64,000 bases of DNA from a virus. How positions within the stretch are numbered: the stretch's first letter is position 1; the number at the start of each line of letters is the position of its first letter. The position numbers and the translations under genes are program-made. The stretch spans positions 1 to 64,000 of the IMG/VR virus record IMGVR_UViG_3300023174_004273; one strand, given 5' to 3'. The notes under the pieces were generated by a model. It searched no databases. It was not told the origin of the DNA and saw only the letters and a list, made by a program, of their open reading frames with translations. This document shows positions 2,703 to 8,759 of the stretch, piece by piece.

Positions 2703-3953
2703 ATGTCGGTTCCTTCACATAATTTATATGATTTTGTACACCACGCCACAGAAAAGCGGTACTGGTTGCTGAGGTTTTATCCTTGGGGTAACAAGGACCT
2801 AGATGCTCTGAGTGATTATCAGTCCGATCTAGATGGTCCAAATGGCATACCCAAACAACAAAGATTCTTGCATCAGATGGATCCTGAACCACTGACTGAT
2901 CTGGCCTACGACAAGCAAGTGCGTAACTTCCAGCCCATACTGTTGTGTCATGATCAAGAACCACTGGACTTTGATCTTTACCAAGACGGGTCTGACATCA
3001 TGAATAGATACATCCATACCAAGGCTTGGGATTCATCATATCCTCATGTTAACTTTAATCTTAGAAATGCCATAGTATGGAGTTGGCAAAAACAATGGAC
3101 TTTGCTCCACAGTGAGTTAAACTCATCGGAACTAGATCGCTATGAATCCACTGGACAGTACGTAGGTGCTTACTGGTGGAGCCATGCTGTGATAGCACTG
3201 GATTGGTACAGATATGCTCAACAGGACCAATCATTGCAGTATGGCAATGCCAACAAGCTGTTCCTGATCTATGCCCGAGACACCACTGGCACACGACAGT
3301 ATCGAAGCAAGTTCTTGGATCAAATACAGGATTTCAGTGATCACTGCCAGATAGGATCAGTCAAGGACTATTTGGTATCATCAGACAGCAGTGCTACCTA
3401 TGACAGCGAAGATTTCAATCACACAGCATTCAGCGTGGTATTAGAAACACTGTTTGATGATGCTCGCATACATCTGACAGAAAAGATCTTGCGGCCCATT
3501 GCCTGCGGTCATCCATTCTTGCTGGCCGCTGGTGCCGGCAGTTTATCACTGCTACGCAGATACGGGTTTGAAACTTTCAGTCCCTGGATCAATGAAAGTT
3601 ACGATGATATCACAGACAGCAAACAACGTCTATGGGCCATAGTGGCAGAAATGCGCAGGATAGCACAGTTGTCCAGAGATCAGCAACAACACATCATTGA
3701 CTGTTGCCGGCAAGTGGCTACCAGGAATAAAAAAAGATTTTTCCACAGTGATTTTTTCAACGCTGTCACACAAGAACTCAAAGACAATGTCAACCAGGCT
3801 TGGAAAAAACATCAGGGCCGATTAAGCCCTGACTTTTATTGGAAAACTTTTCGCTGGCGTCGGAAAAATAAACCTGAGTATTTTACACCAGCGAAAAGAG
3901 TCGATCATCGAACCATGCTGTCCTTGGTACGTCGATTACGACAATCTACTTGA
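2703..3953 (+). CDS. Hypothetical 'TEK'-family protein (GT-B/GT10-like C-terminal domain)
   Basis: VVLET...TEKILRPI...GFETF..WINESYD motif shared with 27476-28471 and 62181-63245. Confidence 0.55.
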   Translation: MSVPSHNLYDFVHHATEKRYWLLRFYPWGNKDLDALSDYQSDLDGPNGIPKQQRFLHQMDPEPLTDLAYDKQVRNFQPILLCHDQEPLDFDLYQDGSDIMNRYIHTKAWDSSYPHVNFNLRNAIVWSWQKQWTLLHSELNSSELDRYESTGQYVGAYWWSHAVIALDWYRYAQQDQSLQYGNANKLFLIYARDTTGTRQYRSKFLDQIQDFSDHCQIGSVKDYLVSSDSSATYDSEDFNHTAFSVVLETLFDDARIHLTEKILRPIACGHPFLLAAGAGSLSLLRRYGFETFSPWINESYDDITDSKQRLWAIVAEMRRIAQLSRDQQQHIIDCCRQVATRNKKRFFHSDFFNAVTQELKDNVNQAWKKHQGRLSPDFYWKTFRWRRKNKPEYFTPAKRVDHRTMLSLVRRLRQST

Positions 3954-4269
3954 ACAGTATCAGGGCCATGAGCACGGCCTGCACGATAAATCCAGTGCCA
4001 ATGGTGATGATGTTGAGTGAGTCTTTGAGTACCACTGCACGACCAAACAACAGCACCAGTCCTCCCCACATCAGTAGAATGATGTCCACAGATGGTGTGC
4101 GATCACTGAGTCCTGTGAGCAAGGCCAACAGCGTGGGTATGGTAGCACCATGTATCAAGATCACTGCCAACCAGCCCAGAGTTTCTGCTGACACGGTGTG
4201 TAAACTCTGGCTCAGCCACTGGCTAAAGTTAGATCTCACGTTGCCAATAAAGTTAAAAATCCAACTCAT
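3946..4269 (-). CDS. Small 3-TM membrane protein (possibly PQ-loop/SemiSWEET-like)
   Basis: Three hydrophobic segments; ATGA overlap with upstream gene supports start at MSWIF. Confidence 0.5.
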   Translation of the reverse strand: MSWIFNFIGNVRSNFSQWLSQSLHTVSAETLGWLAVILIHGATIPTLLALLTGLSDRTPSVDIILLMWGGLVLLFGRAVVLKDSLNIITIGTGFIVQAVLMALILFK

Positions 4270-4871
4270 GATTTGATTTCCTTTTTCTTGTAGAAAAGAT
4301 GATTGCCAAACTTGGCTAGGTATTGCATGTTCCCCCAACCGGGCGTGACATAGTCAGCATGAAAATAAAGAGCTTCTTTCAAGCTGGGCAAACGGAATCC
4401 TTCTAAAAGGACTTTTTTAGCCACTTCCATGCTTTCTTCGTACAAAGCAGGATGCACTGGTTTTATTTTGTGTGTGGGTTCGCAGTACCAGCTGAACTGG
4501 CACACGACCTTTTCATACACTATATTCTTCTGGTACACAACACCGCAGACGCCTTTGCCAAAACGTCCATCCTCCACGCGATTCATTGTGACTTGGGCCA
4601 CACCCACCTTGCCTTCAAAAGGCTGGTTGGCAGCTTCCCAGTAGATATTGCGAGCCAAGCATTCTAGTTGTTGAGTGCGGTCCGCAGTAGAAACGAAGCC
4701 TTGGCGCCAGGCGGTGGCTTCGTTATTGGATGCAAGAGCATCCAGACGCAAATTTGTGACTGTGATCAGGATCGAAGCAACGATCATTAAACCGATCACA
4801 CGGGGCAGACTTACGAAAAGTTTGACCATGCCAACTTGGTGCGTTTTTGACTTTGATATTGTCGCTGTCAT
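4266..4871 (-). CDS. Cell wall hydrolase, SleB/Hydrolase_2 family
   Basis: CLARNIYWEA, VAQVTMNRV, CQFSW, ALYFHA, GNHLFY motifs; N-terminal TM; AAGGAGG RBS. Confidence 0.9.
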   Translation of the reverse strand: MTATISKSKTHQVGMVKLFVSLPRVIGLMIVASILITVTNLRLDALASNNEATAWRQGFVSTADRTQQLECLARNIYWEAANQPFEGKVGVAQVTMNRVEDGRFGKGVCGVVYQKNIVYEKVVCQFSWYCEPTHKIKPVHPALYEESMEVAKKVLLEGFRLPSLKEALYFHADYVTPGWGNMQYLAKFGNHLFYKKKEIKS

Positions 4872-5004
4872 AACTCCTCCTTGTTTACAGGTTTATTTTT
4901 TACCGTAGTAATATGTACTGGACACAGGACCACAGATAAATGCGTACATTTCCAAAAGAGCTATATTTAATCCAAACACTCCAAAAGAAACAGACACAAG
5001 CTAT

Positions 5005-5033
5005 ATTTTAGCCTATTTTTCGATTGAAGTCAA
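5005..5033 (-). promoter_or_regulatory. Sigma70-type promoter for the sleB-like gene
   Basis: TTGACT-17 nt-TAAAAT on the minus strand. Confidence 0.6.
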
Positions 5034-5081
5034 ATTATTTTTTGCCTGAGGGGAGATATCCCGGGATTCGATGACTAAATA

Positions 5082-5195
5082 TTTGACGGGGAGTAGTTAG
5101 CCCATGGTGGGCTCCATATATCGTCATCTCGGCCAGTAGGCCCGGTATATGGACAAAGAGACGAGACCATTTTAACTTTAAGGAGATTAAAATGG
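5082..5195 (+). ncRNA. yybP-ykoY (Mn2+) riboswitch with translational expression platform
   Basis: GGGGAGTAG (5088-5096); P2 AGCCCA/TGGGCT; P3 TCCATATATCG/CGGTATATGGA with TCATCTC loop and GGCC-AGTA-GGCC cap; CGAGACC (5162-5168); directly upstream of a TerC gene. Confidence 0.85.
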
Positions 5196-5881
5196 AACTA
5201 CTTTCCATACAAGCCCTTTGGGCATTCTTGGCTATCGTATTGATAGACATCGTATTGGCCGGAGATAACGCACTGGTTATCGGAATGGCTGCCAACCGAC
5301 TTCCACCCGAACTACGCAAACGAGCGATCTTTTGGGGCACCTTTGGTGCTATTGGTATCAGGTTTGTATCAGTTGCCGCACTGACCTATCTATTGATGGT
5401 CCCTGGACTAAGAGCTATCGGTGCCGTGGCCTTGTTATGGATTGGCTGGAAGCTGGTGTTTGATAACAAAGATCATGAAGTCAAAGCATCAGACACATTT
5501 TGGGGAGCTATTTGGACTATTTGTGTGGCAGATGCTGTGATGGGCATAGACAACGCACTAGGCATTGCCGCTGCCGCACAGGGCGACTGGACATTGATTA
5601 TCGCTGGATTGCTGATCAGCGTACCAATCATATTGTTCGGTGCAGGCTTGGTTACAAAGATACTACAACGTTGGCCCGATTCAATGTTCCTGGGATCATT
5701 TGTGTTGTTTGCTGTGGCCTTCCTAATGCTGATGAAAGAACCATTGATGGCTACCTGGTGGGCAGGGTTGGATACATGGGTGGCCAAACCACTACCTTGG
5801 TTGGCTGCCGCAGTTATTACTGCTGTGCAATATAACAAAGCTCGCTTGCACTTACACAAACGATATTTGTTTAGAAAATAA
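5192..5881 (+). CDS. TerC-family (YjbE-like) integral membrane metal transporter
   Basis: IDIVLAGDNALVI and ADAVMGIDNAL metal motifs, GLLISVPII; multi-TM. Confidence 0.92.
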   Translation: MELLSIQALWAFLAIVLIDIVLAGDNALVIGMAANRLPPELRKRAIFWGTFGAIGIRFVSVAALTYLLMVPGLRAIGAVALLWIGWKLVFDNKDHEVKASDTFWGAIWTICVADAVMGIDNALGIAAAAQGDWTLIIAGLLISVPIILFGAGLVTKILQRWPDSMFLGSFVLFAVAFLMLMKEPLMATWWAGLDTWVAKPLPWLAAAVITAVQYNKARLHLHKRYLFRK

Positions 5882-5904
5882 AAAAGCCCCGCAAGGGGCT
5901 TTTT
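5881..5904. terminator. Bidirectional intrinsic terminator
   Basis: AAAAAGCCCC-GCAA-GGGGCTTTTT between convergent genes. Confidence 0.85.
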
Positions 5905-6085
5905 ATTGATGCTTGTGGAACAACGATCGAGTTTTTTCCCACCAGGACTTTTTCTTTTCAGTTTGTAAAAACCTTACCAACTGACGGGTCTTTTTCTCTT
6001 CGTCATGCAAGGCCATATTCCTCAATATGTGCTGTCGATTATTGATGATGTAGTCCCAGCGTTCTTCTGTGGTCATAAAGATCAC
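5903..6085 (-). CDS. Hypothetical protein
   Basis: 60-aa ORF coupled (GTGA overlap) to upstream gene. Confidence 0.45.
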   Translation of the reverse strand: MIFMTTEERWDYIINNRQHILRNMALHDEEKKTRQLVRFLQTEKKKSWWEKTRSLFHKHQ

Positions 6086-6558
6086 TTTCCTGACAATGGG
6101 TTATCCATGGCTTTTTGTATCTTAGAATCAACTTCTTTACGCATCTGGCGTAGTTCTTGATCCACTTCGCGATTCAACTGCTTGCCATCACGTTCTACTT
6201 GTTCCACGATCTTTTCCAATCTACGGATATCTTGTTTTAAATCGTTTTTGATATCCTGTGTATACTGCACGGATTTTTCCGAGTTCTGCATGGTAACTTC
6301 CATTTTCTTGTTCAACTCGCTCAAATCCGGAGCCACATATTCGGCAATCTTTTTCTTCATGCCCTGATAGTCCTTGTACACTTCAAAGGCACCGTAAAGC
6401 CCACCCAGCGTAGAGCTGATGATAGTGGCAGCCACCATGAGCTTGGCTGGCGTAAACTCATAACCGCCTATAGAAATCACCGTGTTAGCACTTAGATACT
6501 TCTCCTTGGCTTCTGCTAACTTGTCAACTTGTGAGTTTAAATCTTTTTTCTCTGTCAT
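6082..6558 (-). CDS. Membrane-anchored coiled-coil protein (paralogue B)
   Basis: VISIGGYEFTPAKLMVA-TM-coiled coil-DNPLS; paralogue of 6567-7130. Confidence 0.7.
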   Translation of the reverse strand: MTEKKDLNSQVDKLAEAKEKYLSANTVISIGGYEFTPAKLMVAATIISSTLGGLYGAFEVYKDYQGMKKKIAEYVAPDLSELNKKMEVTMQNSEKSVQYTQDIKNDLKQDIRRLEKIVEQVERDGKQLNREVDQELRQMRKEVDSKIQKAMDNPLSGK

Positions 6559-6566
6559 ATTCCCCC

Positions 6567-7130
6567 TTATCTGGACAGCGGATTGTCCAGTGCTTTCCTT
6601 ATTTTGTCATCTACTTCCGCTCTCAATGCACGTATCTCTGCCTGTGTTTCTTTTTGGTTTTTTACCAACTCTCTGTTGACTTCTTTGAGAGTGGCATCAA
6701 CATCGCGCTTGATTTCTTTCATGCCCGAGTCTGTCAGCCGCTGATCTGTCTTGCTCGAACGTTCTATGCCTTCTACTACACCTTCCAGTCTGCGTACATC
6801 GCTCTTTAGATCTTGTTTGATGCTGTTGGTGTACTCTACCATTTTGCTGGTATTTGCATCTAAAACTTCCATCTTTTTATAGATTTCAGTTAGATCTGGT
6901 GTAACATACTCGGCAATCTTTTTCTTCATGCTCATGTAATCTTTGTAGACTTCAAAACATCCATACAGTCCGCCCAACAAAGAGCTGACCAATGTAAATG
7001 CTACCATGAGCTTGGCTGGAGTGAATTCATAACCGCCGATGGATATCACGGTATCCTTGCTGGCGTACTTTTTCACTGCTTCTTCAGCGGCGTCAATTTT
7101 AGCATTGACGTCTTTGATTTCTTCTCCCAT
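6567..7130 (-). CDS. Membrane-anchored coiled-coil protein (paralogue A)
   Basis: Same motifs as 6082-6558 with a longer coiled coil; AAGGAG RBS. Confidence 0.7.
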   Translation of the reverse strand: MGEEIKDVNAKIDAAEEAVKKYASKDTVISIGGYEFTPAKLMVAFTLVSSLLGGLYGCFEVYKDYMSMKKKIAEYVTPDLTEIYKKMEVLDANTSKMVEYTNSIKQDLKSDVRRLEGVVEGIERSSKTDQRLTDSGMKEIKRDVDATLKEVNRELVKNQKETQAEIRALRAEVDDKIRKALDNPLSR

Positions 7131-7142
7131 TTTGTACTCCTT

Positions 7143-8759
7143 TTACTTCTGATATTGTTGATCTACCATCTCATTGTGTAAACGATCACTGGCTCCACTC
7201 AATCTACGTAGCAAAGTGCGATTGTCTACATTGTCTCGGCTGTATTGTCTGGCCATCTGCAAAGCATTTACGTCAATGATCCTGGCATTGCCATAGGCAT
7301 CAAACCCAGGAACAAATCCCATGAGTCCTACTACTAATCCTTGTGTGGCTGTTTGTGCTTCAAAGGTTTTGGCTTCTGCACCTGCTCGGGCTACTTCTTT
7401 GGCACGGGCTTCAACACGATTTTTCATTTCATCTTTGTTGGATGATCCAGACCCAGCTGATTTTACTTCTCCGTCGGTTTTCTTGGCTTCTTGTGATTGC
7501 GGACTCTGAGTTTGACCGGGGCCTGGCCCTTGTTGAGCTTGATTTTGGCTCTGTGGCTGTTGTGCATTGTTACCAGGTTGTGCATTGTTACCAGGGCCCG
7601 ATGTTTGGTTCACAGGACTCACGGAAGAAGTCACTGATGTCACACCAGTTGAGCTGGTAGTGCTAGGTGTTGATATAGCTGAATCAACCGTGCTGTTACC
7701 AGTGCGACTTACTTCGGTGCTCACGGTACCATCTGATTTTACAGATGTGGTTGGTGATGAGGTACTAGTAGTTGAGGTCGTGGTAGTTGTGGTGGTGCCT
7801 ATGTTGAGAATATTTTTTTTGGCATAGGCTTCAGCATAGTTAGGACAGGTGGTGCTATAAAGTCCATTTGCCAGACATTGTTGATTAAAGTAGGCTTCTT
7901 GATAACCAGGACAATCTGTAGCATACAATGGATTGGCTGTGCATTGTTGGGTCTTGTAGGCTTGTGCGTACCCAGGACAAGCTGGATTGTACAAAGGATT
8001 GGCCGTGCATTGTTGTGTAAAATAGGCCTGTGCGTAACCGGGGCATGAAGGATTGTAAAGAGCGGATATGGTACATTGTTGATTGAAGTAAGCGGTGGCA
8101 TATCCGGGGCAGTTGGGCGAGCTCAAAGGATTTACTGAACATTGATCCACGGTATAGTTCAACGACAGGCTGGGATCACGCACTCGAGGACCATACAGAC
8201 CCATCCAGAATCGATCATCCCGACCAGAGATGGCCATGCTGAGATAACCAGCAGATGCTAGAGAGTAAGGATTCGTAAAGGTTTTGGTGCCCTGTTCTGT
8301 GTTCCACACCGCCTCGGCCTGCTTGGCATGACTCATGCTCTGGCTTTCCAGCGTGTTGCCGGCAGGATCGCTCAAAAGAATAGCAACTCCCAGACTGCCA
8401 CTGCTGTAGCCACCATTCATCCACTGATACTTCCAGTTGAATCCGTTGATCTGTATACCAGTGCCTTGCAGAGCTTGATTGATGGCTATGGTCTGTGCCA
8501 CCGTGCTGGGCAAGTAGCCAAATCGTATGGTGTTGGTGTCGGAGTTGTAGTAGGCCGAACCCGTGGTATAACCCGCACCTTCCACAGAGGCAATGCCGTT
8601 GATATTGAGCACCTGGTTGCTGGGTATGCCCCAGGCTGTACCCGCAGGGTTGATCAGGTTGGGTGTGGTCTGAGTCTGCGCATACACTGGCAAGCTGGCC
8701 CACAAATACAGTAGGCACAGGTATAAGAACACCAGGAAGCGCAGATAGTAAGGCATCAC
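7143..8759 (-). CDS. Secreted protein with Cys-rich 22-aa repeats and S/T/Q-rich linker
   Basis: Signal-peptide-like N-terminus, beta-rich domain, five QQC-x9-CPGY repeats, low-complexity linker. Confidence 0.7.
   Translation of the reverse strand: MMPYYLRFLVFLYLCLLYLWASLPVYAQTQTTPNLINPAGTAWGIPSNQVLNINGIASVEGAGYTTGSAYYNSDTNTIRFGYLPSTVAQTIAINQALQGTGIQINGFNWKYQWMNGGYSSGSLGVAILLSDPAGNTLESQSMSHAKQAEAVWNTEQGTKTFTNPYSLASAGYLSMAISGRDDRFWMGLYGPRVRDPSLSLNYTVDQCSVNPLSSPNCPGYATAYFNQQCTISALYNPSCPGYAQAYFTQQCTANPLYNPACPGYAQAYKTQQCTANPLYATDCPGYQEAYFNQQCLANGLYSTTCPNYAEAYAKKNILNIGTTTTTTTSTTSTSSPTTSVKSDGTVSTEVSRTGNSTVDSAISTPSTTSSTGVTSVTSSVSPVNQTSGPGNNAQPGNNAQQPQSQNQAQQGPGPGQTQSPQSQEAKKTDGEVKSAGSGSSNKDEMKNRVEARAKEVARAGAEAKTFEAQTATQGLVVGLMGFVPGFDAYGNARIIDVNALQMARQYSRDNVDNRTLLRRLSGASDRLHNEMVDQQYQK
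7818..8147 (-). repeat. Five tandem 66-bp (22-aa) repeats, consensus QQCxxNPLYxPxCPGYAxAYxx
   Basis: Read directly in the translation. Confidence 0.9.

Follow-up and report, generated by a model that had tools for sequence, protein, structure and literature searches.

Introduction

The mgtA riboswitch of S. pneumoniae, which has been shown experimentally to respond to Mn (PMC6649816), folds as a three-way junction in which the P4 helix found elsewhere in the yybP-ykoY (Mn2+) family gives way to a short, conserved, A-rich linker while the L1 and L3 elements are kept. The viral terC leader analyzed here shares this layout, its linker reading ACNAAG where that of mgtA reads UNAAA. In contrast to the viral leader, mgtA resides on a bacterial chromosome, has a P1.1 helix of normal length, precedes a P-type ATPase gene and acts through a transcription-terminator platform. 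P4 is not universal in the family, since mgtA lacks it (PMC6649816), nor is P2, which is missing from alx (PMC12153347); a P4-less form is thus not new to the family.

The mntP and alx riboswitches of E. coli (PMC12153347, PMC11647493, PMC9603457) act as translational ON switches, the 3′ half of P1.1 belonging in turn to the aptamer and to the expression platform, which is the design that we propose for the phage RNA, and the switching of both has been reported to be co-transcriptional (PMC12153347). Like the phage leader, that of alx precedes a TerC-family gene and forms a three-way junction, and it shares the GUAAC / GUGAGACC P1.2-L1 sequence with most of the phage relatives described below; alx, however, is devoid of P2 whereas the phage RNA is devoid of P4, and mntP forms a four-way junction. 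Both E. coli leaders further differ from the phage one in being long and in being transcribed from sigma-70 promoters. The closest sequences of all are chromosomal terC leaders of Polynucleobacter (L082-L098 and L103 in our collection), which display the same L1, L3 and P2 layout but harbor a P4 hairpin and a P1.1 of 3-4 bp, have no TAAATA in front of them and use another expression platform.

Riboswitches have been called ‘a rare feature in phages’ (PMC9004378). The glutamine (glnA-type) riboswitches of phages, exemplified by the OM43 phage Melnitz (PMC9004378), are likewise found in large aquatic phages that are T4-like and infect streamlined hosts, but they belong to another class, have glutamine as their ligand, control other genes and do not sense metals. 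A full-text search of the literature found no published phage-encoded Mn2+ riboswitch. What Weinberg 2017 (PMC5737381) named the ‘terC motif’ is another RNA, and our Rfam scans gave no match to it.

As to transcription, the T4 late promoter (TATAAATA, gp55) and the box described below have in common an A/T-rich sequence with no -35 element, placed immediately upstream of many genes; members of the gp55 family also occur in genomes related to ours. The core used here is TAAATA (CTAAATA at terC), however, and it is also found before replication genes (ligase, polymerase).

The viral window and its terC gene

The window, by which we mean the whole 64-kb stretch of DNA under study, is part of a 75-kb IMG/VR record that is 22% complete. 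It is 97% coding and encodes a phage ligase, NrdAB, an exonuclease, a polymerase, helicases, a primase, an endolysin and structural proteins. By this gene content, the window is viral DNA; its carrier is a giant freshwater phage. A search of sequencing runs retrieved window DNA again from freshwater and lake metagenomes of several studies. Two true RNA libraries yielded one contig each, both restricted to the endolysin side (4700-4947 and 4707-4857) with terC lying outside, and contigs of this kind cannot show a start site. A nucleotide search with positions 4000-7000 of the window returned no match among GenBank phages. The replicative helicase is 59-64% identical to its counterparts in larger related contigs, the value for the complete 357-kb genome being 64%, and the DnaE-type polymerase had no match in the larger contigs G001-G004.

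The terC gene (5192-5881, + strand, as are all features below unless otherwise indicated) codes for a 229-residue, YjbE-type membrane protein of the TerC family (phrog_7180). The product scored 136.4 bits against Pfam PF03741 (E 1.1e-39; cut-off 27.8 bits) and 190 bits against TIGR03717, ‘R_switched_YjbE’ (cut-off 134.8 bits), so that the candidate riboswitch occupies the 5′ leader of a gene of the Mn-homeostasis type (TerC/YjbE). Immediately downstream, at 5882-5904, a GC hairpin with flanking A and T runs forms a predicted bidirectional intrinsic terminator; the hairpin was read from the sequence and the terminator scan scored the - strand. Both the gene and the terminator had been assigned in an initial, sequence-only reading of this DNA.

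Anatomy of the aptamer

That sequence-only reading had proposed a yybP-ykoY riboswitch in front of terC, and each of the elements it listed was found where it had placed them. Judging from conserved sequence and pairing, positions 5088-5168 are a genuine but reduced yybP-ykoY aptamer in the form of a three-way junction, with Mn2+ as its predicted ligand by homology. L1, L3, P1.2, P2 and P3 are retained and P4 is absent, a loss that the sequence-only reading had not mentioned.

The conserved GGGGAGTAG spans 5088-5096 and begins with the 5′ strand of P1.1, GG (5088-5089), which pairs with C5168 and C5167. These two invariant pairs, G5088:C5168 and G5089:C5167, are the only ones of P1.1 that the alignments support. 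An extension of the helix by four pairs was paired in 47% of the alignment cells, which is no better than shuffled sequences, and displayed no covariation, and was thus not supported; the basal helix had been suspected of weakness from the outset, and the alignments bear this out. The same two G:C pairs are reported to initiate formation of the switch helix P1.1 in L. lactis (PMC11087558). Next to them, the 5′ strand of L1, GGAGUA (5090-5095), is invariant in the phage alignments and in an alignment of 44 bacterial sequences. The same holds for the complete L1 signature, consisting of GGGGAGUA at 5088-5095 on the 5′ side and, on the 3′ side, of AGAC running into the CC of P1.1 at 5164-5168, which is invariant in the 44 bacterial and 36 phage sequences.

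The 5′ strand of P1.2, GUU (5096-5098), pairs with GAC (5160-5162), and compensatory change is clear here, the window, L023 and L028 having GU/AC where the remaining 33 sequences have AC/GU. The P2 hairpin (5099-5113) is paired in 99% of the cells, with changes on both sides in five of its seven pairs. P3 (5114-5152) consists of P3.1 (5114-5123 with 5143-5152), the L3 internal loop (5124-5130) and the P3.2 hairpin (5131-5142), and compensatory pairs were counted in P3.1 (7 of 10) and in P3.2 (3 of 4). L3, an asymmetric loop of 7 nt, reads UCAUCUC (TCATCTC in the DNA) in the window vs UCAACAC in the clade consensus; at one L3 position that is nearly invariant in bacteria, the window has U instead of A, and the same L3 recurs in one leader from the Negativicutes. 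The pentamer CGUCA (5122-5126), situated opposite CCGG (5142-5145), is invariant, and we take it, by reference to the L. lactis structure, to hold the Mn-coordinating adenosine.

Where P4 would be expected lies the purine-rich linker ACAAAGA (5153-5159), which aligns opposite the P4 hairpin of the Polynucleobacter leaders and of which A-C-N-A-A-G is kept in relatives; no hairpin, and hence no P4 helix or four-way junction, was found within 5153-5159. The aptamer closes with the 3′ strands of P1.2 (GAC), L1 (GAGA) and P1.1 (CC) at 5160-5168. The GAGAC contained therein is invariant in the phage alignments, and in CGAGACC (5162-5168) the AGAC part is also invariant in the 44-sequence bacterial alignment.

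Class assignment by covariance models

The sequence-only reading had named a search with the Rfam yybP-ykoY model as a check of the class assignment and the lack of a significant match as evidence against it. At the gathering threshold, Rfam yielded no match anywhere in the window, and RF00080 was likewise absent from a scan of 401 bases at E values up to 10. When 141 bases were searched, P3 alone matched RF00080; the match covered positions 46-86 of the 177 in the model and scored 13.5 bits, the gathering threshold being 45 bits (Rfam 15). On this point the outcome went against the initial reading. The same model, however, also misses established members of the class. In E. coli K-12 (loci L161:13375-13501 and L162:10462-10573), the validated mntP scored 41.6 bits, which is below 45, and the validated alx was not reported at E values up to 0.05. 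Leaders from Desulfosporosinus, Polynucleobacter and Paenibacillus received 30.7-32.1 bits, and an Rfam scan of 20 bacterial terC loci with plain yybP-ykoY leaders and terminators produced no match; a scan of 20 phage relatives detected a tRNA alone. As a built-in control of our genome search, RF00080 passed its cut-off in two of 14 reference genomes. Since RF00080 misses validated members, a score below its threshold does not exclude membership. Surveys of this class that rest on the current Rfam model and threshold are thus expected to under-count it.

We therefore relied on covariance models of our own. For the first, R1, 44 distinct terC leaders were taken from bacteria (Polynucleobacter, Rhodanobacteraceae, Paenibacillus, Brevibacillus, Negativicutes and others). 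On 45 kb of E. coli DNA it recovered alx (41.4 bits, E 4e-9) and mntP (24.3 bits, E 1e-4) together with one weak spurious match (E 1.7). Applied to both strands of the entire 64-kb window, R1 gave a single, full-length match at 5083-5173 (30.9 bits, E 3.2e-6), in which the window preserves all 19 positions that are invariant in the bacterial alignment and four of the five that are nearly so. Each related phage genome, including the complete one of 357 kb, similarly yielded one match, located in the terC leader. The reciprocal model, R2, built exclusively from phage three-way-junction aptamers, retrieved 25 bacterial terC leaders at E values up to 0.01, those of Polynucleobacter scoring 45-54 bits; it did not reach alx or mntP of E. 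coli. The proposal of a yybP-ykoY aptamer before terC thus stands on a model validated on alx and mntP, on its reciprocal, on TIGR03717 and on the covariation described below. Together, these comparisons support the assignment of the element, by sequence and structure homology, to the yybP-ykoY class as a P4-less three-way form that a virus carries downstream of a putative promoter of its own.

Covariation among phage relatives

A search with the TerC protein identified 80 loci in IMG/VR, in 60 of which GGGGAGTA occurred upstream of terC. These yielded 43 distinct leaders, that of the window included, across which the element is conserved, as the initial reading had asked to confirm. Thirty-six of the leaders are short, as in the window, and seven are longer and retain P4 as a small hairpin that precedes the 3′ strand of L1. 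R1 assigned 52-60 bits to the long type and 26-50 bits to the short type, and found nothing else in the 357-kb genome.

When the three-way junction was applied to the 36 short aptamers, 97.1% of the cells contained standard pairs, and in 17 of the 26 pairs both partners had changed. This result was equaled in none of 500 shuffles, and controls in which the pairing was slid along the alignment were paired in 27-44% of the cells. RNAalifold, run unguided, returned the same fold as the junction derived by homology. Helices P1.2, P2, P3.1 and P3.2 are thus present in the order typical of the family and supported by covariation. That the unpaired L1 and L3 remain invariant while the stems around them drift is, as read from these alignments, the signature of a selected binding pocket.

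What such a pocket would bind is a separate matter, in that the fold might have been conserved while the signal shifted to Ca2+, Fe2+ or another divalent ion, or to a pH-dependent form of Mn sensing, the phage then reading another cue. Members of the family differ in selectivity: in vitro, the P4-less mgtA aptamer of S. pneumoniae has a higher affinity for Ca2+ than for Mn2+ (PMC6649816), variation in L3 tunes the response of alx and mntP (PMC12153347), and the UCAUCUC of the window departs from the UCAACAC of its clade. Nevertheless, we regard a changed ligand as unlikely: the family-invariant positions are kept without exception (19 of 19), an identical L3 exists in a bacterial terC leader, and the gene under control is of the standard Mn-linked TerC/YjbE type. 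Mn2+ is therefore retained below as the predicted ligand.

Several relatives depart from the common layout. In one lineage (L033, L035 and L036; about positions 2900-3006), a deletion that begins with GGGG has removed the aptamer up to and including most of P3, and what is left are TAAATA, a 3′ remnant, the start-codon hairpin and terC, i.e. a natural riboswitch-less derivative. In L004 (158-346), as well as in L049, L050 and L057, a long leader with P4 has a 9-bp hairpin, CCAUAAUAU/AUAUUAUGG, over an upstream AUG, with 60-90 additional nt after it. The upstream AUG of L004 opens a frame of 19 codons, the UAA of which lies 2 nt before the AUG of terC; this short frame may encode a leader peptide, or the platform may have been duplicated. 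With its P4-containing, P4-less and aptamer-deleted leaders, the clade offers a set of natural experiments that may help define the minimal Mn2+-sensing core.

The TAAATA box

A TAAATA box at 5076-5081, similar to the core of the T4 late promoter, precedes the aptamer of the window and was read from the start as a phage promoter. All 43 distinct leaders have TAAATA 4-8 nt (most often 5 nt) before GGGG. There are 38 copies of this hexamer in the window, 28 of which lie within 120 nt upstream of a start codon on the same strand, vs 7.6% for the background. Within 60 nt upstream of starts, TAAATA was the most enriched hexamer (24 of 38 copies, p 6e-25), ahead of Shine-Dalgarno words, and it is found before ligase, polymerase and structural genes. 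The full TATAAATA occurs five times in the window vs 1.45 expected. Sigma factors of the gp55 family (phrog_234; E 6e-23 to 3e-27) are encoded by three of the four larger contigs bearing the cassette, namely G001 (complete, 357 kb), G002 and G004; no gp55 homologue was found in the 75-kb record of the window itself, which is 22% complete, and no promoter of the sigma-70 type on the + strand upstream of terC. These findings support the identification of TAAATA as a candidate phage promoter box of the T4-late type, which may act late in infection.

Promoters of the T4 late class have their box centered near position -10. With this geometry, transcription of terC would be initiated on the first G of the aptamer or beside it, and such a start would explain why a longer 5′ strand of P1.1 is missing.

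Upstream of the cassette, within 4872-5075, the 320-nt intergenic region carries a divergent TAAATA (4964-4969, - strand) directed toward a SleB-type endolysin gene (4266-4871). On the same strand, from 5033 to 5005, lies a sigma-70-like promoter, TTGACT and TAAAAT separated by 17 nt, also oriented toward the endolysin. The terC cassette and the SleB-type lysis gene are thus arranged back to back.

The start-codon hairpin and the proposed switch

Downstream of the aptamer, a perfect 9-bp stem formed by CCATTTTAA (5167-5175) and TTAAAATGG (5187-5195) places the Shine-Dalgarno sequence AAGGAG (5180-5185) in the loop and the ATG of terC (5192-5194) in the 3′ arm of a hairpin extending over 5167-5195. 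As the sequence-only reading had pointed out, the hairpin uses the CC of P1.1, C5167 and C5168 being common to both structures. Its folding energy is -7.8 kcal/mol, and -1.9 kcal/mol once the two C:G pairs are taken away. Most relatives have such a stem, 4-9 bp long and variously extended, generally as CCAUAA/UUAUGG, with such variants as CCAUUUU/GAAAUGG in L067 and CUGUAAU/AUUAUGG in L011; in three relatives the stem is limited to a forced CCAU/AUGG of 4 bp. The hairpin is not followed by a T run, which argues for control at the level of translation.

The window displays an additional pairing, in that codons 2-5 (5196-5206) are complementary to 5088-5098 over 11 bp, as part of the minimum-energy fold. 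With -14.9 kcal/mol, this duplex ranked second among 200 windows along the open reading frame. The pairing is common to the window and L023, and weaker and in another register in most relatives; based on these computed energies, codons 2-5 are a possible second anti-aptamer element, and hence a lead.

A translational ON switch is the mechanism that we most likely expect from this arrangement. In the absence of Mn2+, C5167 and C5168 would pair with G5195 and G5194, and the 9-bp hairpin would bury the AUG; in this window, the 5′ strand of L1 would additionally pair with codons 2-5, and translation would be low. In its presence, L1 would dock on L3 and hold GG5088-5089 on CC5167-5168, the hairpin would lose its only G:C pairs, the start site would open and TerC would be made. 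The OFF fold was computed to be 16.5 kcal/mol more stable than the fold constrained to ON. With a P1.1 as weak as two pairs, control would, according to this model, have to draw on kinetics or on tertiary and ligand energy, and by analogy with alx and mntP the switch, if working, would most likely act co-transcriptionally.

The same two features, a P1.1 of two pairs and an OFF fold computed to be far more stable, would also be expected of a constitutive riboswitch derivative, kept for a role independent of any ligand, be it to stabilize the mRNA, to throttle translation at a fixed level or to pause transcription; the three relatives devoid of the aptamer further indicate that sensing is dispensable for some phages at least. 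Yet a generic hairpin would not account for metal-pocket nucleotides of L1 and L3 that are invariant although the stems have changed often, a pattern that fits a binding site, and a ligand-independent leader accordingly strikes us as improbable.

Returning to the Mn2+-responsive reading, the phage probably tunes TerC to metal conditions inside the cell it infects, as far as can be judged from homology. We are fairly confident, on the strength of the comparisons above, that the locus constitutes a self-contained cassette in which a promoter box, a Mn2+ riboswitch with a derived aptamer that would operate as the proposed ON switch, terC and a terminator follow one another, while we infer which ligand is bound, that it turns the switch on, and where and when transcription starts. 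Such a switch, if working, would allow a virus to read the metal status of its host through RNA and to dose an auxiliary membrane protein accordingly. The suggestion that the switch exists to protect Fe enzymes, made in the sequence-only reading, is speculation.

Origin and mobility of the cassette

The nearest cellular TerC proteins are those of Polynucleobacter, with 63-67% identity, and a FastTree phylogeny groups them with phage TerC in a single clade (support 99), separate from other bacteria. The Polynucleobacter leaders are four-way junctions, near-identical to the long type of the phages. Most likely, terC and its riboswitch were captured together from a Polynucleobacter-like (Burkholderiaceae) host, after which P4 would have been lost and P1.1 shortened to the two G:C pairs at its top. 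That Polynucleobacter TerC is the sister of phage TerC also points to a possible host of these uncultured phages of 190-357 kb.

Across the relatives, phage TerC identity is about 65-89%, with values of 79-89% in many. Proteins flanking terC in the window (2703-8759, compared with the flanks of L001-L080) were found near terC in L061 and L062 only, and the same terminator hairpin after terC is common to many relatives. With the flanks unshared and the terminator shared, the unit behaves as a self-contained exchangeable cassette, which appears to move between phage genomes.

That the element is instead a recently acquired host riboswitch decaying without function in the phage, as its probable horizontal acquisition with terC and its escape from recognition by Rfam might suggest, is very improbable, because 17 compensatory pairs out of 26 and 43 distinct leaders, conserved despite TerC proteins that have diverged to about 65-89% identity, point to purifying selection on the RNA.

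We tentatively advance a broader scenario, possible though short of what we would call probable, in which giant freshwater phages, probably infecting Polynucleobacter, circulate a mobile cassette composed of a late promoter, a minimal Mn2+ riboswitch, terC and a terminator. The aptamer would begin with the first nucleotide of the transcript, the switch helix would consist of two pairs, and TerC production would depend both on late infection and on free Mn2+ in the cell. Were this to hold, a virus would for the first time be shown to use a riboswitch that senses a metal, and the element would be a near-minimal Mn2+ sensor of natural origin.

In isolated phages with a terC gene (Otagovirus, a Rhizobium phage and an Acinetobacter phage), the approximately 65-80 nt upstream of the gene matched neither R1 nor R2. 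A 2.7-kb contig binned as ‘uncultured Chitinophagaceae’ (L081, CAZUUI010000291.1) harbors a cassette of the phage type, with a TerC 85% identical and a short leader including TAAATA; this contig is probably misbinned phage DNA. Finally, about 2.4 kb downstream of the terC cassette, the phage relative L023 has a tRNA gene (6056-6128, - strand, 60 bits).
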